Origin: an uncultured virus (IMG/VR IMGVR_UViG_3300032462_001943)
Lineage: Duplodnaviria; Heunggongvirae; Uroviricota; Caudoviricetes
IMG/VR virus record: IMGVR_UViG_3300032462_001943
Length of the DNA stretch: 64,000 nucleotides
Direction: 5' to 3' (one strand)
A program made the position numbers and the translations under genes. The notes under the pieces are model-generated. The model was not told where the DNA came from. It saw only the letters and a program-made list of their open reading frames with translations, and made no database searches. Positions 1,772-54,404 of the stretch are shown here, in pieces; the first letter of the stretch is position 1, and each line of letters begins with the position of its first letter.

Positions 1772-1777
1772 GTTTTT

Positions 1778-5563: not shown

Positions 5564-5569
5564 TTAATC

Positions 5570-20336: not shown

Positions 20337-20690
20337 TTAAACACAATGGAGATTGCCCAGCGTATTGATGTGCGTTATACTTCCATTGTTGGATAGGTGA
20401 AGCTCCATAGTTCCTTCGGCCATTTTATTCGTGGCCATAGGAACATTGAACTCAACCCACAGGGTAAAACCTGTGGGAGTCCAGTAACATCGGGAGAGCG
20501 TAATTGATACGCCTTTGGGTTTTATTTCGCTCGATGATATAATTGCAAGGCGGTTGATATTTGCCTTTACGGTCTGTAATACGAAGGCCAACAGCCTTGA
20601 ACTATCCAAGAAGTGTGTCCAGTTTGCGACCAGGAGTTCTTCCAGTTTGTCTTCTCTGAAGATGTTCTTCAGCACACTTACCAATTCCAT
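20337..20690 (-). CDS. Hypothetical protein
   Basis: ORF filling the gap between genes. Confidence 0.55.
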   Translation of the reverse strand: MELVSVLKNIFREDKLEELLVANWTHFLDSSRLLAFVLQTVKANINRLAIISSSEIKPKGVSITLSRCYWTPTGFTLWVEFNVPMATNKMAEGTMELHLSNNGSITHINTLGNLHCV

Positions 20691-20692
20691 GT

Positions 20693-20962
20693 TTGGAGTT
20701 TCCCGTGAAAAAGCCAGATTTTTATTTAAAAGAGTATTGCCAGCGTCTTTCGGACGACAACCTCAAGTTCCTTACCGGACGGTTGAACCAAAGATTGGGT
20801 GGCGATGTGGCAGAAGTTCTTGATTTCTTGAGCAATGTGCGAGAGATTGACCGATGGCTTGCATCGGCAGAAACCAGTAACGATCTTTACGATATGATCG
20901 ACCTTGTGAAAGCATCAACGGTGAAAGAATATGATCGACGTTGCAACGGCCACGCAGCCTGA
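20693..20962 (+). CDS. Hypothetical protein (start possibly GTG at 20705)
   Basis: Helical ORF; GGAG upstream of the GTG. Confidence 0.5.
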   Translation: MEFPVKKPDFYLKEYCQRLSDDNLKFLTGRLNQRLGGDVAEVLDFLSNVREIDRWLASAETSNDLYDMIDLVKASTVKEYDRRCNGHAA

Positions 20963-21703: not shown

Positions 21704-22092
21704 AATTTCACATCAAGAAGAATGCCCACTTTGAGGCTCGTATATACATTGGCAATCGTGTCAAGTATAACGGGCCTCAATTTTCTTTTGCCGAGCTTAG
21801 AGAAGCCATTGGATATTTCCAATCAAACAATGGAATTGAGGCGTCCAATCCCGTTCGTATAACCCCCACAACATTTGTTTGGGAAAAGTACGATGAAGAG
21901 GGATGGGAAATCGCTGTAATTGATTACCCAAGGGTCAGCAAGCCGCATAGTGTTTTGCGTGAGTTTGCATACAACTTGGCAGTTCATTTGTTTGAGAGGT
22001 TTGAACAGAACCGAATGTCTATTGTTTTTCCCGACGAGATAGTTATGCTGGAGGCCGATGACGCAGAAGAAAACAAGTACAACCAAAAGTAA
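21700..22092 (+). CDS. Hypothetical protein
   Basis: ATGA overlap with the upstream gene. Confidence 0.6.
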   Translation: MKFHIKKNAHFEARIYIGNRVKYNGPQFSFAELREAIGYFQSNNGIEASNPVRITPTTFVWEKYDEEGWEIAVIDYPRVSKPHSVLREFAYNLAVHLFERFEQNRMSIVFPDEIVMLEADDAEENKYNQK

Positions 22093-22108
22093 TCGCAAGG
22101 AGAAAAAA

Positions 22109-25100
22109 GTGCCTGTAGTAATCAAAGCTGAGGATCAGCCTGTTGTTGTAGCTACATCTGATTATCCTTACGCCAAATGGAAGTTTGAGACGTTCAATCC
22201 GGTTCAAAGTCGGATTATGGATTTTTATGACAAGGATGTAAACGGTCTTATCGCCGCTATGACTTCAGCAGGCAAGACAGTCGTAGCTGAAATGTTTCTT
22301 GCGCAAGAAATTCGTAAACGTGGTGGCAAGGGCATGTTCCTTGCTCCTTTGCGTGCATTGGCTCGTGAGAAAATCACCGATTGGAAAAACGAGAATTATC
22401 ACTTCGCCGACCAGAAAATTTCTATCTGCACAGGTGATTATAGGCTCACAAAAGAGCGTGCCAAAGAATTGAATGATGCCAATCTCATCATCATGACTTC
22501 GGAAATGTTAAATCACCGCAGTCGCAATCATAAGGCCGAACAAAATAATTGGCTTCTTGATGTTGGCACGTTAATTATTGATGAATGTTTGTCTCCAAAT
22601 GCAATAATTGAAACAGATCAAGGTCCAATTTCTATTGGAGACATCATTGACAAAAATCTGGATGTTAAAGTTGCATCCATGAATCACTCAACCAAACAAA
22701 TTGTATTCAAAAAAATAGTTGCTCGTCAGAAAAAGTTGTTAAAAAGAAGATGGCACACCATATATTATGACGGTGGGCATATTTCTGCGACATCAAATCA
22801 TTTGGTGTGGTGTGAAAATCGTGGTTATATTCCCTCTAAAGACATTCAAGAGGGAGATGTTATTTATGTACGAGGAATTAACGAAGAGAGAAAAACAAGT
22901 AATATTGGGAACTTTACTGGGAGACGGTTCGATAGCTCGACTTCCGCACGGAAAGTCAGCAAGATTGAGGGTTCAACAGTGTTCGGCTCAAAAGGCTTTA
23001 GTCGAATGGAAGTACAACGAGTTGAAGCGATTGGTTGGCACCCCTCCACAAATCAAACCGAACCAAGGGTACGGAAAGGAAGTGTGCAGATTCAACACAT
23101 TGTCAAGCAAAATGTTGTTGGCAATACATTCGATGTGTTATCCACGAGGGAAGAAAATAGTAAATTCTCAGTGGTTGGACGAGATCACCGATCCGGTGGC
23201 ATTGGCGGTGTGGTACATGGACGACGGAAGCCAGGGTCCAAGTATGATGGCAATTCACACCGAGGGCTTTCCCAAATCAGAAGTGGAATTGTTAGCGCAT
23301 TGGTTGGAAACGAAATGGTCGGTGGCTTGCGAAGCCTATCCGACAAAACAATATTGGCAACTCAGATTTCCAGCGAAGGGTCGGGATCGTTTTCAAGAAC
23401 TGGTTCGTCACGAAATAATTTCAGACATGAATTACAAGGTGCTGCCAAAAATGGAGCAGATATTTTGTTCGATGTGTGGTCAGAAATTCATCGCAGATCG
23501 CCGCAGTCTTCATCAAGTCAGGAAGGTCATGCTTTGTGGGGCCAAGGAGTGTCGGTTGAATTGGGACAGGATGTACAGCCGGACGGAGACATGGATTCAG
23601 AGGAATCTTGGTGTTGCGACTTAGAAGTTGAATCTGATTGTTTTGAAGATTGCAATTTTTTTGCAGATGGAGTTCTTGTCCATAATAGTCACTTGTTGAC
23701 TGTTCCAGGTCGTGGAGATCACCTGGAAGTTGGACTCATGAAGTTCACAGAGATCAATCCCAAGGCTCGTCTCGTGTTGCTTTCAGCAACGATGCCTAAT
23801 GTAGAAGAGATTGCCGACTGGATTAGTTATTCTTTGACCAAGCGTGAAACTTTCATGTTGCGGTCCAAGTATCGACCAGTGCCTTTGACTCTTCACTATG
23901 AGTCTTATTACGACGTAGGCAGATACGATCAAGTCGAAGAAGAGAAGGTCAATAAAGCCCTTGAAATTATTGAATGGTATCCAGACGACAAGTTCCTTGT
24001 CTTCGCCCATACAAAGCGTACTGGCGAATTGATGAAGCAAAATTTGCGATCATTGGGCATTGAAGCTCAATTTCACAATGCTGATTTGCAAGCTGATGAG
24101 CGTGCTAAGGTGGAAGATCGTTTCAAAACTGATCCTAAGCTACGGGTCATTGTGGCTACATCGACTTTGGCATGGGGCTTAAACCTTCCTGCTCGACGTG
24201 TGATTATTTTGGGCGTCAATCGAGGAATTGGCGAGGTTGAAACTCACGATATTCTTCAGATGGTCGGTCGATCTGGTCGGCTGGGAATTGATCCGATGGG
24301 TGATGCGTACATCCTCGTTCCTGAAAGTGAAGAGGCAAAATATCGTCAGAAATTCAGCAAGCCGAATCGTATTGAATCCCAGCTTTTAGAAAAAGTTGGT
24401 GACAAATACAAGGTGTTAGCTTTCCATCTTGTTAGTGAAATTCATCACGGCACTGTGTCAACAACCGATGATGTTCATGCTTGGTATAAGCGGTCGTTGG
24501 CTTATTTCCAAAACAAGGCTCTGGATGAAACTGTTGTAGACCAGACTTTAGACTTACTGCGGAAATGCAGTGCGGTTTGGAAAGAAGATGCTGTTGAAGG
24601 TGAGACGGATGAAAAATGGATTTGCCGACCTATTGGGAAAGTTTCCAGCATGTTTTACTTCAGTCCATTTGATGTCTCGGACTTGTATTTTAACTTCAAG
24701 AATTTATTCCAAGACAATAAAGAGGACGACGATTACTTCGTGTCAACGGCTCTGGGAAATATTGATGGTCAGAGAATGAATATAGTTTCTCGTATTGAGA
24801 AAGAAGAGATGAGTCTTTATGCCGCAAAGGTGCGGACCTTGATGCCAGGGAAGTTCTTCAATGATGCCTCTTTGAAGGCTAGTTTTTGCTACTTCAATTT
24901 GTTAAATGGCGTGAACAGCCAAGCCTGTGCCACAACGCAAAGGAATCTTCAGTTCGATTTCAATCGGCTGTCACAGGTTCTTCAGTCGCTCGATACATTT
25001 GGCGGCAATTGGCAACGTGAAAGTTACTTCAAGATTCTTGAGGGGCGTATTACCAATGGGGTTCCAGTTCACTTAGTTGATCTTTGTCGTTTGGCAAACA

Positions 25101-25273
25101 TTGGCAAAGCACGAGCTACGAAGCTCTATGAAGCTGGATTTAAGACTGTTGAATCGGTTGCTGATATGGACTTTGAGAACTTCAAGAAGATTGTCAACAG
25201 TACGGGTAAATCCATGAAGGTAGACGCAGCTAAGGAAGTGTTTGAATCTGCCAAGGTGTTCGCTTTGCTTTAA
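22109..25273 (+). CDS. Ski2/Hel308-like SF2 DExH helicase containing an intein
   Basis: FNPVQ, TSAGKT, IIDE|SH after splicing, LSAT, ATSTLAWGLNLPA, QMVGRSGR, C-terminal HhH; AAGGAG RBS before GTG. Confidence 0.9.
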   Translation: MPVVIKAEDQPVVVATSDYPYAKWKFETFNPVQSRIMDFYDKDVNGLIAAMTSAGKTVVAEMFLAQEIRKRGGKGMFLAPLRALAREKITDWKNENYHFADQKISICTGDYRLTKERAKELNDANLIIMTSEMLNHRSRNHKAEQNNWLLDVGTLIIDECLSPNAIIETDQGPISIGDIIDKNLDVKVASMNHSTKQIVFKKIVARQKKLLKRRWHTIYYDGGHISATSNHLVWCENRGYIPSKDIQEGDVIYVRGINEERKTSNIGNFTGRRFDSSTSARKVSKIEGSTVFGSKGFSRMEVQRVEAIGWHPSTNQTEPRVRKGSVQIQHIVKQNVVGNTFDVLSTREENSKFSVVGRDHRSGGIGGVVHGRRKPGSKYDGNSHRGLSQIRSGIVSALVGNEMVGGLRSLSDKTILATQISSEGSGSFSRTGSSRNNFRHELQGAAKNGADILFDVWSEIHRRSPQSSSSQEGHALWGQGVSVELGQDVQPDGDMDSEESWCCDLEVESDCFEDCNFFADGVLVHNSHLLTVPGRGDHLEVGLMKFTEINPKARLVLLSATMPNVEEIADWISYSLTKRETFMLRSKYRPVPLTLHYESYYDVGRYDQVEEEKVNKALEIIEWYPDDKFLVFAHTKRTGELMKQNLRSLGIEAQFHNADLQADERAKVEDRFKTDPKLRVIVATSTLAWGLNLPARRVIILGVNRGIGEVETHDILQMVGRSGRLGIDPMGDAYILVPESEEAKYRQKFSKPNRIESQLLEKVGDKYKVLAFHLVSEIHHGTVSTTDDVHAWYKRSLAYFQNKALDETVVDQTLDLLRKCSAVWKEDAVEGETDEKWICRPIGKVSSMFYFSPFDVSDLYFNFKNLFQDNKEDDDYFVSTALGNIDGQRMNIVSRIEKEEMSLYAAKVRTLMPGKFFNDASLKASFCYFNLLNGVNSQACATTQRNLQFDFNRLSQVLQSLDTFGGNWQRESYFKILEGRITNGVPVHLVDLCRLANIGKARATKLYEAGFKTVESVADMDFENFKKIVNSTGKSMKVDAAKEVFESAKVFALL
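22586..23686 (+). mobile_element. Intein (367 aa) inserted in the helicase DExH motif
   Basis: DE|CLSPNAIIET...ATSNHLV...DLEVE...NFFADGVLVHN|SH. Confidence 0.92.
22866..23624 (+). CDS. LAGLIDADG homing endonuclease encoded in the +1 frame inside the helicase intein
   Basis: ILGTLLGDGS and LAVWYMDDGS motifs; own GGAG RBS at 22853; C-terminal CxxC...C...C. Confidence 0.85.
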   Translation: MYEELTKREKQVILGTLLGDGSIARLPHGKSARLRVQQCSAQKALVEWKYNELKRLVGTPPQIKPNQGYGKEVCRFNTLSSKMLLAIHSMCYPRGKKIVNSQWLDEITDPVALAVWYMDDGSQGPSMMAIHTEGFPKSEVELLAHWLETKWSVACEAYPTKQYWQLRFPAKGRDRFQELVRHEIISDMNYKVLPKMEQIFCSMCGQKFIADRRSLHQVRKVMLCGAKECRLNWDRMYSRTETWIQRNLGVAT

Positions 25274-26327: not shown

Positions 26328-27017
26328 ATGCAGGTATTAGGTGTCGCTGCTCAACTTGCCAACGGCAAAGACGTTCTTTGTGACTATTTGGTGAAGGTTC
26401 TCAATAGATCATATGCCGAGAATGATCCCAATCGTTGGCATCGTAGTGCATTTGCAAATGCCGTTAAGGATGTCTTTGAAAGTAGTTTCGGCGTTGATCG
26501 GGATTTCACTGAAAAATGGAAGAGAAACCCTGAATCTCCTCCAGACATGCTACAGAGCGTGAGAAAAAGTCTCCAATTTATTGGAGATGGATTTCGCAAG
26601 ATTAGAGACGGCATCTGGATTGAAATTGCCCTACGAGACGAGAGTAAGAAACTGGTTATTTCCGACAGCCGGTACATAAATGAAGCTAAGGCTGTAAAAA
26701 CCAAAGACGGATTTATGGTTGTTTTGTATCGTCCTGGCTTCTTGAATGATGATCCTAATCCTTCTGAGGCTCAGATTAAACCTATCGTAGAGTTCTGTGC
26801 CAATCACTTGGAAGAAGGCCCCATTCCATCCTATCAAACTCTGGTTCTTGCTTTCGGAGAAAAGGCAGTTCCCGAAGGAATGAAGTATTACGATTACTAT
26901 CTTATCAATGACGGGGCTTTGGAAGATTTGTATTCCAAAGTGGACCGATTACTGGTTCCAATCATTGAGAGAAAATATGAACAGAGTCACAAGTCCGGGC
27001 GACCGGGTGAATGTTAA
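26328..27017 (+). CDS. Deoxynucleoside monophosphate kinase (T4 gp1-like)
   Basis: N-terminal GKD P-loop, AFANAVK, R..LQ.IG...R, ISDSRYINE. Confidence 0.75.
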   Translation: MQVLGVAAQLANGKDVLCDYLVKVLNRSYAENDPNRWHRSAFANAVKDVFESSFGVDRDFTEKWKRNPESPPDMLQSVRKSLQFIGDGFRKIRDGIWIEIALRDESKKLVISDSRYINEAKAVKTKDGFMVVLYRPGFLNDDPNPSEAQIKPIVEFCANHLEEGPIPSYQTLVLAFGEKAVPEGMKYYDYYLINDGALEDLYSKVDRLLVPIIERKYEQSHKSGRPGEC

Positions 27018-27345
27018 AAAAGGTTGGGGTTCCGAAGATTGGATTTGGAACGATGACAATTATTGTGGGAAAATTCTAGCCTTTGAAAAAGGCAAGAAAT
27101 GTTCTTACCACTATCACAAAATTAAGGATGAAGTCCTTTTTTTATATAGTGGTAAGATCATTATGAAGTATGGCGATGACGATGATTTTGATGCTGCAAC
27201 GGTCCTGGTTATGGAACCAGGAATGGCATTCCACGTCACACCTGGGCTTCGCCATCAGATGATTGCTGAAGAGGATTCTCTAATGTATGAGTTCTCGACT
27301 CATCATGAGGATTCGGATTCATACAGGATCGTGGTCGGCGACTAG
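26977..27345 (+). CDS. Cupin (sugar isomerase-like)
   Basis: KGWGSE, SYHYHKIKDE, PGLRHQ, EFSTHH. Confidence 0.75.
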   Translation: MNRVTSPGDRVNVKKGWGSEDWIWNDDNYCGKILAFEKGKKCSYHYHKIKDEVLFLYSGKIIMKYGDDDDFDAATVLVMEPGMAFHVTPGLRHQMIAEEDSLMYEFSTHHEDSDSYRIVVGD

Positions 27346-27350
27346 GACTT

Positions 27351-28040
27351 CTATTCGCTCAAGGGTTTTTGGTTTTGGTTCTTGATCTTTTGTTTGAGTT
27401 TGCCCATTCCCACTTCTGTTAACACCATAAACGTGTATCCCCTCGATTGGCAGTGTTGGTTGCAGGCTGTCCATTTTGCAGTATTCCTCGGCAAATGAGT
27501 TTGATTTGCAGGCTTGATTTCCCATATTTCGATATGTCCATCATCGAAAAGAATACTCAAGTCCGGGTTGTAATCGTGAACGTCGCCTTCAAAGCTATAT
27601 TGAACTTTGAATGGTTCTACGGCGTATGAAATAACTTCGGGCATGGCTTCAAGGTATTCGTACACATCGCATTCCATGCCGCTGCGATAGTGCATTTCTT
27701 TTCCACCATTCTTAGTGGAAATCAGATAGCCTTCTCTGAATTTAGGCTTTCTTTGCTTTAGCTTGCCGTCTTTCTTATTGCTTTGATCTTTCCAGATCAT
27801 TGCTTTCATTTGGCCAACCTTGGGTATTTGTGCTTCAGATGGGTGTTTGGCCTTAAAGTGGCTTCTCAAATCCCTAACAGGCGCACCGCAACGACCAAGA
27901 GGGCAAATTACAAACTCACGACCTTCTTCGTGCGACTCTATAATGTGCTTCTTGTATTCTTCAAAGTCGGTATAGCCTTTGCCACACACGAAACATTGAA
28001 ATTTTCTCTTATGATCGTCTTTTGGAAACGGCAGTGGCAT
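27351..28040 (-). CDS. TnsA-like / T4 gp4-like PD-(D/E)xK endonuclease with N-terminal zinc fingers
   Basis: CxxC...H...H, YRSGME, EPFKVQY, YNPD, EIKP. Confidence 0.7.
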   Translation of the reverse strand: MPLPFPKDDHKRKFQCFVCGKGYTDFEEYKKHIIESHEEGREFVICPLGRCGAPVRDLRSHFKAKHPSEAQIPKVGQMKAMIWKDQSNKKDGKLKQRKPKFREGYLISTKNGGKEMHYRSGMECDVYEYLEAMPEVISYAVEPFKVQYSFEGDVHDYNPDLSILFDDGHIEIWEIKPANQTHLPRNTAKWTACNQHCQSRGYTFMVLTEVGMGKLKQKIKNQNQKPLSE

Positions 28041-28473
28041 TTTTTTCCTTTTTCTTCGGCTGCTTAGGATTATGGTGCATGATTATTTTTACTACGTCGT
28101 CTCTGTCGCACACATGAATATTGGGAATATCCGCATTGCCAAACATATTTTCAACTGAGTCTTCGGGGGAACCGAACATGGATTTCAATAGATTGATGCC
28201 GATAAATTTGGCCTCATCCCGAAATCCAGGCATCATTGGATCATCATCTTCGGGTTCGTCGTTTTTGAGCTTGGCGAAAACCAAGCGACTTTCTTCTGGT
28301 GCGCCGAATAAATCGTCGCCTTTTTTGAAGAATAGAATCATTCCGTGGCGATCCATTAGATCATGAATTGATTTCTCAGCTTCTTGTAAAACTAAGTTTT
28401 TGTCCCATAAATCCATAAGCTCCCGGAATTGTGAAAAGCCCGGTGATGGAGTATTGAAATAGTTATTGCTCAT
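28009..28473 (-). CDS. Hypothetical protein
   Basis: GGGG RBS-like sequence; plausible ORF. Confidence 0.6.
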   Translation of the reverse strand: MSNNYFNTPSPGFSQFRELMDLWDKNLVLQEAEKSIHDLMDRHGMILFFKKGDDLFGAPEESRLVFAKLKNDEPEDDDPMMPGFRDEAKFIGINLLKSMFGSPEDSVENMFGNADIPNIHVCDRDDVVKIIMHHNPKQPKKKEKNATAVSKRRS

Positions 28474-28501
28474 TTAGTTCCCCCGGTTGATATATACGAA
28501 T

Positions 28502-29023
28502 ATGACACGCACTTTACACGGCTTCCGAAAGTTTGTACTTGAAGACATGGACCCAACTCCAGATAAGTCTCGTAGTGTTGCTATGGGTTCAGGGGATGAA
28601 GATAAAGGAACTGAAGATTATTTCGGTGCCTTGGGCGACGAACAGGGAATTGAATGGAAAGACCTGACAAGGATATTCGAGGACGAACCTTGGGTTTCAT
28701 CCCACTTTGGATTGGGAACTCCCAATAAAGAAGTTCTGTACAAGCTGTCGGCATGGGAAATAGTCAAGGGATCGCTCACGCCAAGAGGAGCAGACATACG
28801 ATTGAAACCCCAGAAGGGAAATCGTAGTTATCTCTCAGGGAATAAGTTGAATAAATCTAAATACGAAGACACCAACCGTTATCACCTGGGTCGTCAAGAA
28901 CTCATTAAGTTTCTGACCACAGGTTGGACGCCAGCAGCCCAAGGAGCGGGCGGTGGCATGGGAGCCGACCCAATGGGCGGCATGGGTGGTGGAATGCCAG
29001 GAGCAGCACCAGCCCCAATGTAA
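28502..29023 (+). CDS. Hypothetical (possible virion internal) protein
   Basis: FRKFVLE near the N-terminus; Gly/Met-rich tail. Confidence 0.6.
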   Translation: MTRTLHGFRKFVLEDMDPTPDKSRSVAMGSGDEDKGTEDYFGALGDEQGIEWKDLTRIFEDEPWVSSHFGLGTPNKEVLYKLSAWEIVKGSLTPRGADIRLKPQKGNRSYLSGNKLNKSKYEDTNRYHLGRQELIKFLTTGWTPAAQGAGGGMGADPMGGMGGGMPGAAPAPM

Positions 29024-29034
29024 AAAGGAGAAAT

Positions 29035-29223
29035 ATGAAATTCAGAGATTGGTTGCAATTACAAGAAGTCGGGACTGGCAGTAACGCCGTCGCCGTATTT
29101 TCCCGCCCTGTTGGTATTGGCATGGTTCAAAGAGAACCAGTAGATATGATCGGCTTCCGTGACGAAGATCACAAGAAAAAACACAAGAAACACAAAAAAC
29201 AGGACGATCTTGACCACAAATAA
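29035..29223 (+). CDS. Small hypothetical (possible virion internal) protein
   Basis: AAGGAG RBS; MKFRDWLQLQE. Confidence 0.6.
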   Translation: MKFRDWLQLQEVGTGSNAVAVFSRPVGIGMVQREPVDMIGFRDEDHKKKHKKHKKQDDLDHK

Positions 29224-29238
29224 TGGTCTAGGTATGAT
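29210..29238 (+). promoter_or_regulatory. Sigma70-type promoter
   Basis: TTGACC-17 bp-TATGAT. Confidence 0.7.
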
Positions 29239-29242
29239 GCTG

Positions 29243-29366
29243 TCTCGATTCGATATTATGCAGAGCAGAAATCGGCGATTCAGTGATCTAACTTGGTGAC
29301 ACACCACCAGCGGCCCCTGGAACGCCGAATGAAGTCTACACAGTAAGTCGATGGCTTCGAGGAGAT
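29243..29366 (+). ncRNA. Candidate rod-shaped (6S-like) small RNA
   Basis: Nested complementary segments around an 18/19-nt central bubble; lies between a promoter and a terminator. Confidence 0.5.
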
Positions 29367-29381
29367 TACCAGAAAAACACC

Positions 29382-29408
29382 ACAGCTTCCTTTCTAGGGG
29401 CTGTTTTC
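29382..29408 (+). terminator. Intrinsic terminator
   Basis: ACAGCTTC...GGGGCTGT-TTTC. Confidence 0.65.
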
Positions 29409-29422
29409 ATTTGGAGATGAGT

Positions 29423-30034
29423 ATGAAGTTCGCAGTGGTCACAGCTTGCGACGAAGGCTATGCCGACCTCCAGGAGCTTACCAGTCCTACCATCACTGCT
29501 TATTGTGACTTACACGGCTATGATTGTTATGTCCATCGAATTGTTGAAAAAGAACGACCAGCAGCTTGGTATAAGATCAAAGAAGTTTTGAAGGCATTTG
29601 AAACCGGCGTGGAATTCGTACTTTGGATTGACACCGACGCCATAGTTGTCAATAATAAATTCAGGCTAGAAGACATTGCGGAAGATGGGAAGGACTTCTA
29701 TTTCGCCTGCAATTGGGCCGCAATGAACAGTGGCGTATTCATGATGCGAAACACGCAATTGAATAAGGATTTCCTCAACCTCGTTTGGCAGCACGATCAA
29801 TTCATCAATGATGGTTGGTGGGAGCAACGAGCCATCATTCACTTGCTGGAACTGCAAGTTTATCCCGAAGAAAAGATCAAAGAAATTCCTGCTGTCGATT
29901 TTAATTCGGAAGAATATTTCAGCTTTTCTTTCATTCATCACCTGCCGCAAGTCTCTAAAGTTGAACGCATGAAGATATTTCGCAAAATACTATCAAAGGG
30001 CATAAATGGCAAAATCAAACAAGACAAAACATGA
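29423..30034 (+). CDS. GT34 (GMA12/MNN10-like) glycosyltransferase
   Basis: W.KI, LWIDTDA, NSGVFMMRN, WWEQRA; GGAG RBS. Confidence 0.8.
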   Translation: MKFAVVTACDEGYADLQELTSPTITAYCDLHGYDCYVHRIVEKERPAAWYKIKEVLKAFETGVEFVLWIDTDAIVVNNKFRLEDIAEDGKDFYFACNWAAMNSGVFMMRNTQLNKDFLNLVWQHDQFINDGWWEQRAIIHLLELQVYPEEKIKEIPAVDFNSEEYFSFSFIHHLPQVSKVERMKIFRKILSKGINGKIKQDKT

Positions 30035-30131
30035 AGACATAGTTTTGGCAAATTTAGATTTGTTGAAGACGCTGCCTAATTTAGATTTTTATGGATTTTC
30101 ACTGGTCAATACTACTTGAAAGATAATACAG

Positions 30132-31043
30132 ATGTATGATGTGATGAACAATATTCCTGACCGAATGATTAAGTGTCTGGATAAAGGTTTTGTTGAACTT
30201 GTGGATGTAATGCCCCGTCTAGTTCCAGAAGAAACTAAAACGGCAGATTTTGCCATTGTTCAGGCGGCAAGAGTCTCCTATGGAAACGGCACAAAAACCG
30301 TCAATGAAGATCGTGGGCTTATTAGATATTTACTTCGCCACTCTCACACGACGCCAATAGAAATGGTGGAATTCAAGTTCCATGCAAAGATGCCAATTTT
30401 TGTTGCCAGACAGTGGATTCGACATCGGATGAGTTCAACCAACGAATATAGTGGTAGATATTCGGTCATGAAGGATGAATTTTACATTCCTGATATAGAC
30501 AATATCCGGCAGCAGTCCAAGACGAATAAGCAGGGCGGCGATCAGCAAATGTCTACGATGGATGCCCAGGGTTTCCTGGATGTTCTTAATGAAACGTGTG
30601 ACAATGCCTATGCTACTTATCAGGAGTACATCGAAAAAGGCGTGGCTCGTGAGGAAGCAAGAATGATTTTGCCAGTTAACAACTATACCGAGTGGTATTG
30701 GAAAATTGACCTTCACAATCTGTTTCATTTCCTTGCTTTGCGATGCGATAAGCACGCTCAGATGGAAATTCGAGTATTCGCTGATGCAATGCTCGAATTG
30801 ATCGAGCCAATAGTTCCTGTTACGGTAGAAGCCTGGAATGACTATCACGATCATCGTGGTGCGATTAAGCTCACCAGATTAGAAATCGAAGCATTGAAAA
30901 AATCACTTTCTGTTCAACCTGCGGAAGTTGCTGCTGAAGGATGTGTTCAATTTTTTCAAATTGACTCAGATAACAAACGTGAACAAGCAGAATGGATGGA
31001 TAAGGCAATTAAATTGGGATTTATTGAAGTCTTGAAACCTTGA
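30132..31043 (+). CDS. thyX: Flavin-dependent thymidylate synthase
   Basis: AARVSY, HTTPIE, RHRMSSTNEYSGRY, LRCDKHAQMEIR. Confidence 0.95.
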   Translation: MYDVMNNIPDRMIKCLDKGFVELVDVMPRLVPEETKTADFAIVQAARVSYGNGTKTVNEDRGLIRYLLRHSHTTPIEMVEFKFHAKMPIFVARQWIRHRMSSTNEYSGRYSVMKDEFYIPDIDNIRQQSKTNKQGGDQQMSTMDAQGFLDVLNETCDNAYATYQEYIEKGVAREEARMILPVNNYTEWYWKIDLHNLFHFLALRCDKHAQMEIRVFADAMLELIEPIVPVTVEAWNDYHDHRGAIKLTRLEIEALKKSLSVQPAEVAAEGCVQFFQIDSDNKREQAEWMDKAIKLGFIEVLKP

Positions 31044-31058
31044 TTTTTTGAAGCCTTG

Positions 31059-31089
31059 AAAGCCCACAACAAAGTTGTGGGCTTTTTTT
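31059..31089 (+). terminator. Intrinsic terminator
   Basis: AAAGCCCACAAC-aaa-GTTGTGGGCTTTTTTT. Confidence 0.85.
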
Positions 31090-31110
31090 GTTGACATACT
31101 TACTTATGTT

Positions 31111-32538
31111 ATGAGCATATTAGAAAAATTCTTGAAGTTAGAAGCGATTAGTCCAGCAGTGAAAGTTGGCGTTATTGGGGACGCCATGATCGATGAGTAT
31201 TTCAATGTACGAGTCAAAAAGATTTCCCCGGAATTTCCCATTCCCGTCATGCACTCCAACACGGATAAATCCCAGGACTTTCCAGGTGGTGCAGCAAACG
31301 TCGTTTATCAATTCAAAAACTTTAATGCCAATGTCAATTTGATTTCCTTTACTGATGAGTCGGCAGATACAGCTTTGAGGATAAAAGGAATCAATACTGC
31401 CATGTGCGTGAATATACTCACTCGTATTCCTCGAAAACGTAGATTTTATAGTGATGATTTTCCCACCTATAGGTGGGACGTAGAGGAGCCACACTATGGG
31501 TTGGGGTCTGATTTAGATAAGAAATGCTTTGAGCTTTACGAGAAGGCGCAACAGACAGCGGATCATTTTGATGTTCTAATATTTTCAGATTATGACAAAG
31601 GTGTATTTTCTAAATATACAGATTTATTGATTCCTGAGTGTCCAATCACCATTGTTGATCCTAAATCTGGAGATTTGGATCGTTGGCGAGGTTGTACTAT
31701 TTTCAAGCCAAATAAAGAAGAAGCACTTTCATTGTCCGGTTGCAGCAACGTCAATGAGGCTGGAGCCTATTTATTGAATAGGCTTAATTGTAAGGCTGTA
31801 ATAATCACTCAAGCAGGACAGGGCGTTACTGTATTTGATGATCTTGGCACCTACGAGATTCGTCCAACTCAAGCACTCCTACCAGCCGAATCGGTAATTG
31901 GTGCTGGCGATTGCTTTACTGCATTTTTGGCCATGTCATTAGGCTACAAGATAAAAATTCGAGAAGCTGCGGAGATTGCTTGGCGTGCAGGATCGTTGTA
32001 CGTTAAGAATAGACACAACAAGCCATTATATCGAAGCGATATTTTGCATATATTTGACCCGACCGCAGGTAAAATTATTGACACACATCCAGAATTGGTA
32101 TTTCAAAATAGAAAATACAAACTGGTATTCACGAATGGCTGTTTCGATATTCTTCATGCGGGTCATTTGGAAACGCTTCGATATGCACGAAGTCTGGGCG
32201 ATAAGTTGGTTGTTGCTGTGAACACAGATGAAAGTGTCGCCAAGTTCAAGCCAGGACGCCCATTTGTTTCTCTCGATGATCGTATGCGACTTTTAGCTGG
32301 ATTGGAATTTGTAGATTTTGTCATCCCATTTGGTGAACCAACGCCTTTGGAAATTATCAAGCGAATTAAGCCAGATGTATTGGTAAAAGGCGGTGAATAT
32401 AAAAAAGAAGATATTGTTGGTTACGGAATAGTGAACGAAGTAGTGACTGTTCCAATGATTGCTGGCCTATCCACAACCAATCTATTTAAAAAAATAAAGA
32501 CCCAGATTGAATCTGAGTCTTTAACAAAAGATGATTAG
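31111..32538 (+). CDS. hldE: Bifunctional heptose-7-phosphate kinase / heptose-1-phosphate adenylyltransferase
   Basis: GDAMIDEY, PGGAANV, SDYDKG, KPNKEEA, GAGD; FTNGCFDILHAGH, LVKGGEY. Confidence 0.92.
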   Translation: MSILEKFLKLEAISPAVKVGVIGDAMIDEYFNVRVKKISPEFPIPVMHSNTDKSQDFPGGAANVVYQFKNFNANVNLISFTDESADTALRIKGINTAMCVNILTRIPRKRRFYSDDFPTYRWDVEEPHYGLGSDLDKKCFELYEKAQQTADHFDVLIFSDYDKGVFSKYTDLLIPECPITIVDPKSGDLDRWRGCTIFKPNKEEALSLSGCSNVNEAGAYLLNRLNCKAVIITQAGQGVTVFDDLGTYEIRPTQALLPAESVIGAGDCFTAFLAMSLGYKIKIREAAEIAWRAGSLYVKNRHNKPLYRSDILHIFDPTAGKIIDTHPELVFQNRKYKLVFTNGCFDILHAGHLETLRYARSLGDKLVVAVNTDESVAKFKPGRPFVSLDDRMRLLAGLEFVDFVIPFGEPTPLEIIKRIKPDVLVKGGEYKKEDIVGYGIVNEVVTVPMIAGLSTTNLFKKIKTQIESESLTKDD

Positions 32539-35020: not shown

Positions 35021-35165
35021 GTCATATCCTCTCTTATAATCCAAGAAGACACCTGTTGAATATCTTGAACATTTTTCAAGATTAGTATTTTGGGTCTTGA
35101 ACGAGAAATATTCAGCGGCTATATTCCATCTTGCTCGTACCGGATATATGCTCCTTGGAGGAAAA

Positions 35166-37244
35166 ATGACAACAACCCTGAAGAAAGCAATTGGCAACTT
35201 TAACCGAAATCAATTCCGTGCGTTGCACGCCGAAATGACTTTCGGGGAGTATCTGGAGCTTTGTTACAAGCAGCCGTTTCTGCTTCGCAACGCTTGGCAG
35301 ACACTTTATGACATGATTATGGAGAAGGGTTCCGGTACGACTGAAGAGTACCGAAAAACCTATACCAACTATTACTTCTTCGATGATCCAGATTATCCAA
35401 TCATTGGTTTAACGCCAATGAAGGACGCCCTGGTCAAGTTCATCAAGGGAGCCGCTGGTGGCTACGGAACAGAACGCCGTATTCTTTTGCTGCACGGTCC
35501 TGTTGGTAGCTCGAAGTCAACGCTGTGTCGCTTGCTCAAGCGAAGCATGGAGAAGTTCTCCCGCACAGACCAAGGAGCATGGTACTCCTACAAGTGGGTC
35601 AATCTACCAACTGGTGTAGATGGTGTGTACACAGAAGCAGAATGTCCTTGCCCGATGCACGAGCAGCCTCTCAAGTTGCTTCCAGTCGAAGTTCGTCAAC
35701 CTATTATTGATGAATTGAATCGTATTTTTGAGGAGATTTCTCCTGAAGAACGGCAGCAAGACCTTTATACGCTGCGTTGTGCAGATGAGTTGAATCCGCT
35801 GTGTAATAAGTTCATGACTTATTTCTTGAAGAAGTATGATGGCGACCTGGAGCAAGTGCTTGAGAAGCACATCAGGGTTGTTCGTAAGGTCTACAGCGAA
35901 GCGGATCGTTGCGGTATTGCAACCTTCCAGCCGAAGGACGAGAAGAATCAGGACAGCACCGAACTTACTGGTGACATCAACTTCCGTCAGATCGGCAACT
36001 TTGGTTCCGACTCCGATCCACGAGCCTTCTCCTTTGATGGTGAATTCTGTGTCGGAAATCGTGGCATCATCGAGTTTATCGAAGCCCTGAAGCTCGATAC
36101 TGCGTTCTTGTACGACCTCTTGGGTGCCTCGCAAGAGCAAAGCATCAAGCCGAAGAAGTTCTCTCAGGTCAGTATTGATGAAGCGATCATAGCTCACACA
36201 AACGACCCAGAATTCCAGAAACTCAAGAGTAATCAGTACATGGAAGCATTCCGTGACCGTACCACCAAGATCGACGTTCCTTACACCCTCAAGTGGTCTG
36301 AAGAACTCCGCATTTTGGAGAAGGATTATGGTCCTGGCAAGGTGAAGCAGCATATTGCTCCTCACACATTGGAAATTGCTGCTCTGTGGAGTGTATTGAC
36401 CCGTTTGGCCGACGACAAGGATGGCAAAATTTCTTTGATCGAGAAGGCCGAACTGTATGACAACAAGCTATTGGCTGGTTGGACAGAAGATGCCGTCAAG
36501 GAAATGAAGGATAAGTATCCTGATGAGGGTATGCAGGGCGGTGTGTCCGTGCGATACCTTCAGGATAAGATTTCCAATTGCTTGGCCAATAACCATGACT
36601 ATGTGAATATGTTCATGGTGTTGAATGAACTCCGGGATGGGCTGGAACATTCTTCTCTATTGTCCAACAAGGAACAGGTCGGTCGTTACATCTCCTGCAT
36701 CGACTTGGCTCTCAAGAAGCTGACCGAAATCTTGAAGGCTGAGGTACAGAAGGCTCTTGTGGGCGACGAAGACGCAATCATTCGGCTTTGCACGAACTAT
36801 ATCGACAACGTGATGGCATTCATCAATAAGTCGAAGATGAAAGACCCAATCACGGGTCAAGACCGCAAGCCGGATGAGCGACTGATGCGACAGATTGAAG
36901 AGAAGATTCAAATCCCGGATACGGGCTGTGAAGACTTCCGCCGTCAGATCGCAGCGTTCATCGGTGATTTGGCTCACAAGGGCAAGCAGTTCCGCTGGGA
37001 CAGCAATCCTAAGCTCCGCAAGGCTCTCGAAGCCAAGCTGTTCGAGGACGTTAAGGACACCATCAAGCTGAGTGCCTTGAACGTCAGTGGTGCAACAGTT
37101 GTGGATAAGGACATTCAGGAAAAGATCGACGCTATCAAGACCCGGCTCATCAAGCAATACGGGTATAACGAGCGGTCGGCAACTGATGTTCTGGACTTCG
37201 TGGGCGGCATCTTCGCCCGTGGCGATTTGGCCGAAGATGACTAA
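35166..37244 (+). CDS. prkA: PrkA/YeaG AAA+ serine kinase family protein
   Basis: LLHGPVGSSKST, CPMHEQPL, FQPKDEKNQD, DPRAF, NRGIIEFIE, EAFRDR. Confidence 0.93.
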   Translation: MTTTLKKAIGNFNRNQFRALHAEMTFGEYLELCYKQPFLLRNAWQTLYDMIMEKGSGTTEEYRKTYTNYYFFDDPDYPIIGLTPMKDALVKFIKGAAGGYGTERRILLLHGPVGSSKSTLCRLLKRSMEKFSRTDQGAWYSYKWVNLPTGVDGVYTEAECPCPMHEQPLKLLPVEVRQPIIDELNRIFEEISPEERQQDLYTLRCADELNPLCNKFMTYFLKKYDGDLEQVLEKHIRVVRKVYSEADRCGIATFQPKDEKNQDSTELTGDINFRQIGNFGSDSDPRAFSFDGEFCVGNRGIIEFIEALKLDTAFLYDLLGASQEQSIKPKKFSQVSIDEAIIAHTNDPEFQKLKSNQYMEAFRDRTTKIDVPYTLKWSEELRILEKDYGPGKVKQHIAPHTLEIAALWSVLTRLADDKDGKISLIEKAELYDNKLLAGWTEDAVKEMKDKYPDEGMQGGVSVRYLQDKISNCLANNHDYVNMFMVLNELRDGLEHSSLLSNKEQVGRYISCIDLALKKLTEILKAEVQKALVGDEDAIIRLCTNYIDNVMAFINKSKMKDPITGQDRKPDERLMRQIEEKIQIPDTGCEDFRRQIAAFIGDLAHKGKQFRWDSNPKLRKALEAKLFEDVKDTIKLSALNVSGATVVDKDIQEKIDAIKTRLIKQYGYNERSATDVLDFVGGIFARGDLAEDD

Positions 37245-37263
37245 TCTCGTCTGAGGGTTTAAT

Positions 37264-37300
37264 GGGATGGATTCACAAGAGTCCATCCCCTTCTCTCATT
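37264..37300 (+). terminator. Probable intrinsic terminator
   Basis: GGGATGGATTC...GAGTCCATCCC hairpin with a pyrimidine tail. Confidence 0.6.
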
Positions 37301-37334
37301 TCATTTTTAACTCATTTAATTTTTAGGCAATCTC

Positions 37335-37535
37335 ATGAATAATCATTGGCTAGAATCAAAGAGAAACAAAGATAGCGACAATTTTGGTATCGCTGGCAAC
37401 ATAAAGTTTATCATCGATGGCAAAGAAATGATAGCAATGAATAAGGATGGTTTTTATATTGAAGGACGTTTGGTCAAGAACGATTTGAAAATATACGAAG
37501 CGTTTAAGAGTTTTATTGGACGATCTCATGAATAA
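37335..37535 (+). CDS. Small hypothetical protein
   Basis: ORF bounded by a 22-bp direct repeat. Confidence 0.55.
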   Translation: MNNHWLESKRNKDSDNFGIAGNIKFIIDGKEMIAMNKDGFYIEGRLVKNDLKIYEAFKSFIGRSHE

Positions 37536-37743
37536 CCATTGGCTTGATTGCGCCAAGAAAAAACAATTGTTCAAAGAGATAGACGAAATCGGTCTTGAAG
37601 TATGGGGCGAAGATGGCACCTTGGGTGACTTGTTTGCTTCTCTCAATGATGAACAAATAGACTTCTTGATGAATATGCTTGTTCGAGATTTCATGACTGA
37701 CCCAGACGATATGTCATTCGGCGTAGAACTGATCGCACCCTAA
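37528..37743 (+). CDS. Small hypothetical protein
   Basis: Starts with the same MNNHWL as the preceding ORF. Confidence 0.55.
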   Translation: MNNHWLDCAKKKQLFKEIDEIGLEVWGEDGTLGDLFASLNDEQIDFLMNMLVRDFMTDPDDMSFGVELIAP

Positions 37744-37753
37744 AGGATTCAGT

Positions 37754-37936
37754 ATGCAACAGCTTGAGATTAAAGAAATCACAGCCGAAGAGGAACGACG
37801 CTTCTTGGTTAATCGGCGGGCCAGTCGGGAAACTATCATTCGGCAGTTTTCTAATGCTGACCCGGACACGTTGTCCGAAGAACAAAAAGATGAAGTCCTG
37901 ATCCAGATCAGAGACTTCAATTACGGTAACAAATAA
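37754..37936 (+). CDS. Small hypothetical protein
   Basis: AAGGA RBS. Confidence 0.55.
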   Translation: MQQLEIKEITAEEERRFLVNRRASRETIIRQFSNADPDTLSEEQKDEVLIQIRDFNYGNK

Positions 37937-37973
37937 TTACCCGAACAAGTCTATCCGAATCTTGGAGGGATAA

Positions 37974-39197
37974 ATGCCACGCAGAATTGAAGAAGACCAC
38001 AAAGATTTCAGAGATGTAGTATCTGGCCGTATTCGGAGAGCTTTGAAGAAGTTCATCAAGAGCGGCCAGATCGTCCGAAATCGTGGTAAAAATGGCAAGA
38101 TAGCAATCACCATTCCTAAGATCGACATCCCGCATATTGTTTATGGCAGTAGCGATGATGGTGTTGGTCGTGGACCTGGAAAAGATGGTGACGTTATTGG
38201 TCGTGATCCAAAGCCAGGAAAAGGCAATGGGGCTGGAGAAGGCGAAACCGAAGGCATCACCATTAACCTGGACCTTGAAGAAGTTCTCAAGTTCATGAAG
38301 GAAGAACTTCAACTTCCGAACCTGAAGAAGAAGCCAAACGAAATCTATGACGAAATCAAGATTAAATACAACAACATTTCGTTGATTGGACCTGAATCTT
38401 TACGTCACAATAGACGCACGCTGATGCAGACTCTCAAGCGTCAGGCTGCTGAAGGCACTCTCAATAATCTCAAGTATGTTCCTGGTCTTCCTGACCCGGT
38501 GAGAGTATTGCAGCCCATCAAAGAAGACAAGCGATACCGTCAGTTCAATGAGATTAAGATTCCATCCAGCAATGCGTTGGTGATCTTTGCTCGTGACGGC
38601 TCTGGCAGCATGGACGACGCCAAGTGCGATATTATCAGTGATATGTCTTGGTGGATTGATACTTGGATTCGTCGCTTTTATGACCGAGTTGATCGTCTGT
38701 ATGTGTGGCACGACTCGATGGCTATGGAAGTCGATGAAGAAAAATTCTATAAGTATCGGTTTGGTGGCGGCACCACATGCTCCTCAGCATTGAAATTCAT
38801 CACCAAACAGTTTGAGAATCGTTACCCGCCGAACAAGTGGAACATTTATGTGTTTTACTTTACTGACGGTGAAAATTGGGGTGATGATAATGAGACTTTC
38901 ATCAAGACTCTTCAGGACGAGTTCACTCCTGAAGTGGTGAACTTCACCGGCATCACCCAGATATTGTCATATACTTATGATGGGTCGGTAAAACATCAGG
39001 TTGACGAGGCAATCAAAGCTGGTCGTCTCGACAAGGAATATGTAAGAACTGTTTCTATCGGGCCGACGACTGAAGGTAAATCGACAGCAGGATATTACAG
39101 TCCACCAACTTTGAGCGAAGACGAACGGAACGAGCAAATCATGGATGCGATCAAAAAGTTGCTCGGCAATCCAGCCACAATTAGAGAGGAAGCATAA
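37974..39197 (+). CDS. yeaH: YeaH/YhbH (DUF444, vWA-like) protein
   Basis: ELQLPNL, D.RYR, RDGSGSM, GGGTTCSSA, WNIYVFYFTDGENW. Confidence 0.9.
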   Translation: MPRRIEEDHKDFRDVVSGRIRRALKKFIKSGQIVRNRGKNGKIAITIPKIDIPHIVYGSSDDGVGRGPGKDGDVIGRDPKPGKGNGAGEGETEGITINLDLEEVLKFMKEELQLPNLKKKPNEIYDEIKIKYNNISLIGPESLRHNRRTLMQTLKRQAAEGTLNNLKYVPGLPDPVRVLQPIKEDKRYRQFNEIKIPSSNALVIFARDGSGSMDDAKCDIISDMSWWIDTWIRRFYDRVDRLYVWHDSMAMEVDEEKFYKYRFGGGTTCSSALKFITKQFENRYPPNKWNIYVFYFTDGENWGDDNETFIKTLQDEFTPEVVNFTGITQILSYTYDGSVKHQVDEAIKAGRLDKEYVRTVSIGPTTEGKSTAGYYSPPTLSEDERNEQIMDAIKKLLGNPATIREEA

Positions 39198-40789
39198 TGG
39201 GATTCATGCACGGTGCGCCAATGCTACTTGGCAACAATACGGTTCCTGGCGTGCAATTGTCGCCAGAACTGAAGATGTATATTCCAAAGATTCTTCAGGC
39301 TTGCCGAGATTGGGGTCTGGACTTCTATCCAACTGTAGTTCAGTTGTTGACTTACGACGAGATCAGTGAAATTGCCGCCTATGGTGGTTTTCCTGTGCGT
39401 TTCCCGCACTGGTCTTTCGGTATGGAATATGAAGAACTTCAGCGAGGATATGAGTTTGGGATGCACAAGATTTACGAGATGGTAATCAATACCAACCCGT
39501 GCTACATCTACAATCTCAGTTCCAATACTCTGCTCGATCACTTGACCGTTGTTGCCCACGCTACAGGACACAATGACTTTTTCAAGAACAATATTCACTT
39601 CAGCGCTACCGATACGAACATGCTGAATAAGATGGCCAATCACGGCACTCGCATTCGTAAGTACATGGCTCGTTGGGGCAAGGAACGTGTTATTGAGTTT
39701 TTGGATTGGGTTATGAGGCTTGAAACTTTGATCGACGGAGCAGAAGCCTGGACTGATCGAGTCGTTTCTGAAAAGAACATTCGGGACGAGAGAACATACC
39801 GTCATCCAAGACGATTGACGGTAAACAAAGACCGTATGTACATGGAGCCTTTCTTAAACACAAAGGATTTCCGTGATCGAGAAAACGAGCGTATCTCTAA
39901 GCAAGATGTCGCTGATGAAATTGGCGTCTTTAAGGAGCCTACCAAAAACATCCTTGCTTATTTAAGAGATAACGCACCACTGAAACCGTGGCAGGCCGAT
40001 ATTGTGTCGATGTTATATGAAGAAGCAATTTACTTCTTCCCGCAACGTCAGACCAAGACCATAAATGAAGGATGGGCGTCGATGACTGACTCGGTGATTA
40101 TGGCCGAGCAGGGTTTCGTAGCACTTGGACAGAAGAGTCACGATTGCGGCATTATCGAATACGCCGATCACAAGATGGGTGTATTGGGCGGCAAGTATTC
40201 TATGAACCCATATAAGCTGGGATATTACCTGCTTAGGGATATTCGTAGCCGCTGGGACAAGGGACAGTTCGGACCTGAATGGGATGAATGTACCGACATC
40301 CGAATCAAAGAAAAGTGGGATACGAAAGCCGGATTGGGTAAAGAGAAGATTTTCGAGGTTCGCAAATATTACGACGACTTCACTTTGCTCCATGAGTTCT
40401 TTACTGAAGACTTTTGCCGTGAACAAGAATACTTCCACTGGAAACACTTCCCGAATGGTGAATTCAAAATTGACAATCGTGAGTTCAAAGACATCAAGCG
40501 TCTTCTGCTCCGAAGGCATTTGAATGGCGGCTTGCCGGATATTCGCCTGACAGAGCCGAACTATCGTGGCAAGGGAGCTATGTTCCTTCAGCACAACTTT
40601 GATGGTCGTGATATTTACGAGCCATATGTCTTTGATGTATTGACCGCACTGCGGGCAGTGTGGGGAGAAGATGTCTATCTGGCATCTGAAGATGAAGATG
40701 GCAATGAGAAAGTTTATTGCTGTTACGGGACCGACAGCACAAAGGACGTGGAGCTTGTGTCTCGTAAGGAGCACATCAAGCGTGGATGA
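39197..40789 (+). CDS. spoVR: SpoVR/YcgB family protein
   Basis: GFPVRFPHWSFG, IYEMVINTNP, AHATGHNDFFKNN, TKTINEGWAS, NPYKLG. Confidence 0.92.
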   Translation: MGFMHGAPMLLGNNTVPGVQLSPELKMYIPKILQACRDWGLDFYPTVVQLLTYDEISEIAAYGGFPVRFPHWSFGMEYEELQRGYEFGMHKIYEMVINTNPCYIYNLSSNTLLDHLTVVAHATGHNDFFKNNIHFSATDTNMLNKMANHGTRIRKYMARWGKERVIEFLDWVMRLETLIDGAEAWTDRVVSEKNIRDERTYRHPRRLTVNKDRMYMEPFLNTKDFRDRENERISKQDVADEIGVFKEPTKNILAYLRDNAPLKPWQADIVSMLYEEAIYFFPQRQTKTINEGWASMTDSVIMAEQGFVALGQKSHDCGIIEYADHKMGVLGGKYSMNPYKLGYYLLRDIRSRWDKGQFGPEWDECTDIRIKEKWDTKAGLGKEKIFEVRKYYDDFTLLHEFFTEDFCREQEYFHWKHFPNGEFKIDNREFKDIKRLLLRRHLNGGLPDIRLTEPNYRGKGAMFLQHNFDGRDIYEPYVFDVLTALRAVWGEDVYLASEDEDGNEKVYCCYGTDSTKDVELVSRKEHIKRG

Positions 40790-47451: not shown

Positions 47452-47480
47452 TTTACAAAGGTGAATCGGAGTGGTAGAAT
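47452..47480 (+). promoter_or_regulatory. Sigma70-type promoter with extended -10
   Basis: TTTACA-17 bp-TAGAAT with TGn. Confidence 0.7.
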
Positions 47481-47626: not shown

Positions 47627-48002
47627 GGGGCCGTCCCGGTTTCGACGGCGGTGGATGAGGTTAGAGTGGCACGCAGACGTTGATCGAAAGGCGTCTCAAA
47701 AATTCGATCAAGCCTTAACTGGCGAAACTGTTAAGTTCCCAAGTGCTGCTCCGGCAGCACTTGCTGCCTAAGCAATTAGGCACTGACTGAGAAAGCGCCG
47801 CAAGTAGCGTTCAAAAGTCAGCCGCAAAATCTTGCTGGTCTGAAGGTGGGCGACTTACCTGAAGACGAGAAAATAGGTCGATAAGGCTGATGGACCTTTG
47901 CTCGGAGTGGTCCCGAAAGCCCGACAAATGAACAAAGAGACAAGCGTGTAGAGGCTTTAATTTTGTTATCGCCACACAGGGGTTCGACTCCCCTCGGCTC
48001 CA
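47627..48002 (+). ncRNA. ssrA: tmRNA; tag GETVKFPSAAPAALAA* (47721-47771)
   Basis: Acceptor stem GGGGCCG/CGGCTCC-A with G3:U, TTCGAC D-like loop, T-arm AGGGG-TTCGACT-CCCCT, TAACT before the resume codon, tag ending ALAA. Confidence 0.93.
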
Positions 48003-48016
48003 TTAAAATTCGCATG

Positions 48017-51030: not shown

Positions 51031-51042
51031 GGATAAAATGTA

Positions 51043-51537: not shown

Positions 51538-51587
51538 TGAATACAATTTTGAATTTGTGCTTTTTGAACAGTCAAGTAGTACATACG

Positions 51588-51625
51588 ACTACACAACTAC
51601 ACAACTACACACAACTACACACAAC
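51588..51625 (+). repeat. Intergenic ACTACAC(AC)A short tandem repeat
   Basis: About 4 units of 8-10 bp. Confidence 0.8.
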
Positions 51626-51679
51626 CTATGTAGATGTGAAAAGGGCGAGGCAGTCCGACAATGTTAAAGAGGTAATAGA

Positions 51680-53074: not shown

Positions 53075-53089
53075 GGAGCAAGATAAACA

Positions 53090-54403: not shown

Positions 54404-54404
54404 T

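Follow-up and report, generated by a model that had tools for sequence, protein, structure and literature searches.

The window analysed here is a 64,000-nt stretch of DNA from an uncultured virus. It is included in a 462,616-bp metagenome contig (locus L036), in which the GT34 region is identical. The nearest virus record is 48 kb in length with a completeness rated at about 10%, and the sequencing runs listed for the stretch, all of them DNA, came from metagenomes of freshwater, estuary, glacier, soil and sediment. Encoded in the window are a T4 gp23-like capsid protein, gp32 and a RecA/UvsX-like protein, together with PrkA-DUF444-SpoVR, ClpP, a CCA-adding-enzyme-like protein, a tmRNA and a DnaE that is divided into two pieces with inteins present. 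This gene content therefore identifies a huge T4-like phage.

Several other features of the window were recorded. Intein-like insertions (Intein_splicing/Hint) at 22058-25273, 42526-45120 and 58732-62148 hit a DEAD-box helicase and both pieces of the split DnaE-type polymerase, which lie 13.6 kb apart. Positions 1-6000 form a low-G+C island (32-35% vs about 44%) with methyltransferase, sulfotransferase and glycosyltransferase genes, and cumulative GC skew reaches its lowest value near 6-8 kb. The PrkA-DUF444-SpoVR trio occupies 35097-40789, and four collagen-repeat proteins are found in a run at 48943-55724.

The element under study, referred to here as the cassette, lies between a 62-aa ORF and a gene for a GT34-family glycosyltransferase that is followed by thyX (Table 1). 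The final codons of the 62-aa ORF (..D L D H K stop) overlap the -35 hexamer of the cassette. The strong terminator beyond thyX probably closes the GT34-thyX transcription unit, and a gene for an HldE-like kinase/adenylyltransferase comes after it. A dNMP kinase-like gene, a cupin, GT34, thyX and the HldE-like sugar kinase/nucleotidyltransferase are grouped at 26328-32538 and may together form a module for nucleotide or DNA sugar modification. The region from the end of GT34 to the start of thyX (29950-30200) contains gap runs of 228, 285 and 121 columns when aligned to the relative L002; the window version of GT34 has 203 aa, and the match spans 193 aa in L002.

Table 1. Positions of the cassette and of the neighbouring genes and signals in the window
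Feature	Position	Strand	Remarks
178-aa ORF	28487-29023		Upstream of the 62-aa ORF
62-aa ORF	29035-29223	+	Without family match; precedes the flagged spacer
Sigma-70-type promoter	29210-29238	+	TTGACC-17-TATGAT; 10/12 consensus matches
-35 hexamer	29210-29215	+	TTGACC
-10 hexamer	29233-29238	+	TATGAT; spacer of 17 nt
Predicted rod RNA body	29244-29363	+	120 nt; 34 predicted pairs, internal loops, 6-nt apical loop
Linker	29364-29378	+	A-rich (GATTACCAGAAAAAC..); predicted single-stranded; joins rod to terminator
Intrinsic terminator	29382-29412	+	Hairpin 29382-29404, then T-run tail TTTTCATTT
RBS	29413-29416	+	GGAG; 6 nt 5' of the GT34 ATG at 29423
GT34-family glycosyltransferase gene	29423-30034	+	Pfam Glyco_transf_34, E 1.1e-13
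thyX	30132-31043	+	3' of GT34
Strong terminator	31058-31086	+	3' of thyX

Promoter, linker and terminator of the cassette

An earlier sequence-only reading had proposed that this spacer carries a phage-encoded RNA with its own promoter and intrinsic terminator, and that the next gene has its own ribosome-binding site after the terminator. All three signals were found at the positions given in Table 1. The promoter match on its own is no better than chance, with 8 promoter-like sites observed in 27000-32000 compared to 10.3 +/- 3.5 in shuffles. Both hexamers were unchanged in all five sequence variants, while 3 of the 9 positions in spacer segment 29224-29232 differed among them. The terminator behaved similarly. 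All 8 pairs of its stem were kept in each of four variants, with three pairs alternating between C-G and U-G, while the loops varied in both sequence and size (7, 3 and about 7 nt). The T-run was kept, and the terminator as a whole showed 5-8 differences in 24-26 positions among the variants. Kept hexamers and stem next to a variable spacer and loop are what a comparison of variants would be expected to show for a transcribed gene whose promoter and terminator are under selection, and the claim that the unit has signals of its own was borne out in this respect.

The linker between the rod and the terminator was invariant in every column among the aligned variants, and no conserved pairing partner was found for it. 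The terminator is 18 nt upstream of the GT34 ATG on the same strand, its tail ending at 29412, and no promoter-like site was detected between the terminator and that ATG. A -10-like hexamer, TATTAT (TAATAT in relatives), was also seen at 29254-29259, at roughly +10 to +15 relative to the predicted start, and is reminiscent of the sigma-dependent pause elements that lie close to lambdoid late promoters.

Conservation and distribution of the cassette

The case for a real unit comes from comparative conservation, not from the promoter match or the fold alone. Pairwise differences were counted with the window as the reference and L002 as the relative. The flanking genes differed at 15.6% of bases. 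Within GT34, differences were found at 21 of 58 fourfold sites (36%), 67 of 193 third codon positions and 23 of 386 first and second positions (6%); judged by these counts, GT34 is clearly under purifying selection. The phage tmRNA differed at 25 of 376 positions (6.6%). The block at 29233-29378, which begins with the -10 hexamer, showed only 3 differences in 146 positions (2.1%; binomial P = 7e-8), and the body of the cassette is by this measure more conserved than the phage's own tmRNA. Among L002, L003 and L004, whose flanks are 4-5% apart, the block had no differences in its 146 positions.

The same block stood out when the window was aligned to the 49.8-kb record G002 over 44,861 bases at a divergence of 16.1%. 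Only 0.53% of 146-nt windows in these aligned bases showed three or fewer differences, and they merged into six regions (seven listed intervals, two of which overlap in an endonuclease gene). One of the six was 29231-29379. The other five lay within the tmRNA, a recA/uvsX-like gene, prkA, the gene of a TnsA-like endonuclease and one ORF. The conserved block begins 2 nt before the -10 hexamer and stops 3 nt before the terminator stem. Nearly all bases of the body, in loops and stems alike, appear from these alignments to be under purifying selection.

Some of the other conserved regions are worth describing in their own right. The block at 20505-20724 covers the N-terminal half of a 117-aa ORF (20337-20690, minus strand) without a Pfam family. 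Segment 27397-27575, about 150-180 nt in length and 1.7 kb from the cassette, is about 97% identical to G002 against a background of 84% and sits inside the TnsA-like/zinc-finger endonuclease gene (27351-28040, minus strand); a mobile endonuclease gene that was exchanged recently may account for this near-identity. The tmRNA is at 47627-48005 and has the tag peptide AAPAALAA. A promoter-like TTTACA-17-TAGAAT was found upstream of it at 47452-47480, and the leader of about 100 nt between the two is conserved in G002 and includes a GGTCCGAAAGGCC hairpin. This leader may belong to a precursor that is processed, or it may be another small RNA.

The gene order with the cassette was found in four IMG/VR contigs and in at least two metagenome contigs (L037 and L038), one of which is cut inside the element. 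Scans of viral contigs with exact patterns from different parts of the RNA returned the same four related contigs; 20 other contigs from these scans were rejected by blastn as chance 16-17-mers. The DNA contigs of four sequencing runs contained known variants only, and one 125-nt run contig had 7 differences, 2 of them listed. The cassette is single-copy, as model R1 found no second copy when run on the 64-kb window and 17 other loci.

Among the matches listed, five contigs of a more distant clade kept the synteny and lacked the cassette. In this clade the identity is about 70% for the 178-aa gene and 51-56% for the 62-aa gene, and the amino-acid identity of GT34 is 56-58%. GT34 starts 24 nt after the 62-aa gene there, with no promoter, RNA or terminator between the two, and R1 gave no match in these cassette-free loci. 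Since the cassette is absent despite the kept synteny, it is a module that was added or lost and not an obligatory leader of GT34. The module is about 200 nt in length and takes in the last codons of the 62-aa gene. Homologues of the 62-aa protein form 46 clusters, and in 20 of these the protein ends in a tail with [L/I]D, the codons that spell TTGAC in the window. One homologue with this tail is from a 602,679-bp contig, and the GT34 homologue with 79% identity is from a contig of equal length. These tails are a hint that divergent copies of the cassette may be widespread. GT34 relatives of intermediate distance (P0003-P0006) were absent among the matches listed, and the scans for GT34 relatives also returned very distant GT34-like genes.

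Searches in other collections did not extend this distribution. A gapped pattern gave no matches in 185,579 species genomes. A second gapped pattern matched one Rhodoferax MAG, which was rejected as a chance match in G+C-rich DNA that scored 15.6 bits with R1 and had no similarity outside the pattern. Nothing relevant was found by blastn and tblastn against GenBank phages plus E. coli genomes, and the phage record LR756508.1, a weak GT34-like match, was set aside as being without the 62-aa gene. The Rfam searches covered all 6S models, riboswitches, ribozymes and leaders. The cassette matched no family at gathering scores in the search of the window, nor at E <= 10 in segments of 801 nt and 180 nt. 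The best Rfam match, Phe_leader, was rejected with an E value of 0.62 and a score of 18.4 bits against a cut-off of 55, driven by the terminator.

Predicted fold of the body

The five nested pairings proposed from the sequence were all recovered in the MFE, in the centroid and in the consensus fold of four sequences. These are CTCGA 29244-48 with TCGAG 29357-61, TCGA 29250-53 with TCGA 29348-51, TCGGCG 29272-77 with CGCCGA 29323-28, TTCAG with CTGGA and TTGGTG with CACCAG. The closing stem of the rod has about 10 pairs (5 + 5). A central bubble of 18 and 19 nt had also been claimed. An internal loop is predicted at this place, with 17 nt (29255-29271) opposite 19 nt, but five weak pairs are predicted within it.

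The MFE of the rod was -34.3 kcal/mol (z = -1.44), and 15 of 200 shuffles folded at least as well. The complementary strand of the rod folded at least as well too (z = -1.80), and the whole unit gave z = -1.10. Stability of the predicted fold alone is no better than chance. The MFE consisted of the rod plus the terminator in all four variants. The only three substitutions in the body (29256, 29278 and 29285) all fell where the consensus fold has no pairing. As 50 of the 118 rod positions are unpaired, the chance of this is an estimated 1 in 13, so the placement of the substitutions argues only weakly for the predicted rod. None of the 42 predicted pairs changed on both sides because the available copies are nearly identical, and none of the 34 rod pairs varied among the four near-identical sequences.

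No frame in the body was conserved among the variants, and a small or leader peptide was therefore rejected. In the window, the frame from the ATG at 29351 continues into GT34; in L002 it is closed by a TGA that overlaps the start codon of GT34, and in L004 it has shifted. For the other small frame in the body, inspection showed that two of the three substitutions would alter residues. An origin of replication was also rejected, as the GC skew does not turn near 29 kb. In target prediction, duplex folding against the start regions of ORFs in the window gave long-loop duplexes that were uninterpretable, and runs of 13-15 nt of complementarity elsewhere in the window were at chance expectation.

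Candidate functions of the cassette

Taken on the comparative evidence, the cassette is very probably a real non-coding RNA. Our preferred explanation, which we put at a probability of roughly 45%, is that the cassette encodes a structured small RNA of about 165 nt, specific to one clade, and that leakage through its terminator feeds GT34-thyX. The cassette would fill, in one clade, what is otherwise a 24-nt gap between the 62-aa gene and GT34. A host-type (sigma-70) early promoter would fire with a start at about 29245, and the transcript would fold into a rod of roughly 120 nt followed by 15 nt of A-rich single strand. Intrinsic termination near 29410 would release most transcripts as a discrete non-coding species of about 165 nt, and GT34 and thyX would be supplied by polymerases that pass the terminator. 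The folded RNA may bind a protein or another factor in trans. Selection over the whole length and not on a short seed suggests that the RNA most likely acts as a folded, factor-binding molecule. A promoter and a Rho-independent terminator that appear to be under selection, together with the lack of a conserved ORF, were found as would be expected of a stand-alone small RNA gene.

The unit is also in the 5' leader of GT34, on the same strand, directly before this gene, and it ends in a terminator. Therefore, a second explanation was considered, one that the earlier reading had itself named as an alternative, in which the promoter, the conserved RNA and a conditional terminator control entry into GT34-thyX and the short RNA is a by-product. 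The nascent RNA would bind a metabolite, a phage protein or the polymerase, and this would decide whether the terminator is passed. A terminator just before GT34 without an intervening promoter is in the typical position of a cis-regulatory leader. In the cassette-free relatives, GT34 is so close to the 62-aa gene that the two must be co-transcribed, and the inserted terminator would therefore now gate GT34-thyX. Since GT34 is under purifying selection, it must be expressed through this terminator. The full-length conservation of the body is like that of aptamers or of RNAs that form RNPs. Base-pairing small RNAs usually conserve their seed only, and conservation over the whole length is just as compatible with a leader that binds a ligand or a protein. 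An alternative fold of the window sequence, 3.4 kcal/mol above the MFE, joins 29309-29322 to the terminator loop and 3' strand (29392-29405) in a 14-nt pairing. There is also a precedent in lambda, where transcription of the 6S RNA terminates after about 194 nt and Q overcomes the terminator (bioRxiv 10.1101/2024.10.31.621285). However, the 14-nt pairing shrinks to 11 pairs in L002 and 9 in L004 when the sequences are read, and with the 5' strand of the terminator blocked the best folds of L002, L003 and L004 are 7.2-11.1 kcal/mol above the MFE. The alternative pairing was thus counted only as a lead. The lack of a match to any known riboswitch or leader family in Rfam and an invariant linker that has no conserved partner also speak against a leader, and a new riboswitch class limited to one phage clade would be unusual. 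We regard a cis-acting leader as a strong rival but as somewhat less probable, even though it and the stand-alone small RNA fit the evidence about equally.

The function originally proposed for the RNA was that of a 6S-like decoy, in which a rod with a central bubble mimics an open promoter and sequesters the host sigma-70 holoenzyme. The predicted rod does have a large internal loop between G+C-rich helices, and its resemblance in shape to 6S RNA is real but generic. Conservation of the entire body is expected of a shape that is recognised by a protein. No RNA polymerase gene was found within the 64-kb window and sigma-70-type promoters are present in it, so dependence on the host polymerase is probable. 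6S RNAs are about 160-200 nt in length, and their closing stem is much longer and extends to the contact with sigma region 4. The rod of the cassette, however, is only 120 nt with a closing stem of 10 pairs, its bubble is partly paired in every fold, its stability is at chance level (z = -1.44) and none of its 34 pairs varies in the four near-identical sequences. The separate terminator hairpin and the A-rich linker are not 6S features. The covariance-model check that had been suggested for 6S gave no match to the Rfam 6S models at any threshold tried, including E <= 10 on 180 nt. Of the original proposal, the RNA unit with its promoter and terminator is retained, while the decoy role finds no backing in the Rfam result, the chance-level stability or the short closing stem. 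A 6S-like decoy is highly improbable.

Another explanation requires no RNA function. The block could be conserved as DNA because it binds a protein or serves in recombination, or it could have been homogenised recently by recombination between co-infecting phages; the promoter and terminator would then be ordinary punctuation. Nearby coding DNA is also patchily near-identical, and the segment at 27397-27575 makes local homogenisation by recombination possible for the cassette as well. T4-like phages are described as recombining intensely, with promoter/stem-loop cassettes acting as recombination points (PMC2839356; PMC4122927), which would agree with such an origin. Against this, the block runs from 2 nt upstream of the -10 hexamer to a point 3 nt short of the terminator stem, limits that match a transcribed body and not a random conversion tract. 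The block is also common to four lineages with differing spacers and terminators, it has no second match in the window or in the 17 other loci and the GC skew does not turn at the site. Conservation as DNA alone is quite unlikely.

The cassette was compared with known systems. The arrangement most alike is that of the lambda pR'-'6S RNA'-tR' unit, in which a short phage transcript is terminated and the downstream genes are reached past the terminator; the lambda '6S RNA' is itself unrelated in sequence to bacterial 6S RNA (bioRxiv 10.1101/2024.10.31.621285). The likeness is one of arrangement, and no sequence similarity is claimed. The cassette differs in preceding nucleotide/sugar metabolism genes, whereas the lambda unit precedes late genes. 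Neither a Q-like antiterminator nor a qut site was identified at the cassette, and the conservation of its body goes far beyond what a spacer would require. Bacterial 6S RNA (RF00013 and related) is likewise non-coding and a rod with an internal bubble, as is predicted for the cassette. In contrast to it, the cassette has a rod of about 120 nt with a 10-pair closing stem, its own terminator, a narrow phage clade and no covariance-model match. HK022 put (about 70 nt, two hairpins) and lambda nut are promoter-proximal structured RNAs that act in cis on the polymerase. The cassette resembles them in arrangement, with one predicted 120-nt rod in place of the two hairpins of put, and evidence for antitermination was not found at it.

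The cassette shares with stand-alone small RNA genes a promoter, an ORF-less body of 100-200 nt, an A-rich stretch and a U-tail terminator. It differs from them in being conserved over its whole body, not in a seed, and in lying 18 nt before a co-oriented gene. For phiKZ, intergenic non-coding RNAs of about 100 nt are reported (PMC8545117). The PeSL cassettes of T4-type phages are short repeated motifs in which a stem-loop adjoins the promoter (PMC2839356; PMC4122927). Like these, the cassette studied here has a sigma-70-like early promoter and a terminator stem-loop, is intergenic and is tied to indels between relatives. It was rejected as a PeSL cassette, as these are described there, because it is single-copy and has a promoter, then an ultra-conserved body of 135 nt and only then the stem-loop.

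If the cassette is only a clade-specific small RNA without a known target, it would be a modest addition to the catalogues of phage small RNAs. It is unlikely that the rod represents a new class of huge-phage RNA, made from an early host-type promoter, that gates GT34-thyX either by acting on free or transcribing host RNA polymerase (put-like or 6S-like) or by sensing a nucleotide or sugar metabolite. To our knowledge, the regulatory RNAs of huge phages are almost unexplored. The cassette is a sharply delimited candidate RNA at the entrance of a thymidylate-synthase/glycosyltransferase module. With one promoter, one RNA and one terminator, it would be a simple test system for the question of whether structured RNAs of giant phages manage the host RNA polymerase or time nucleotide and sugar metabolism.
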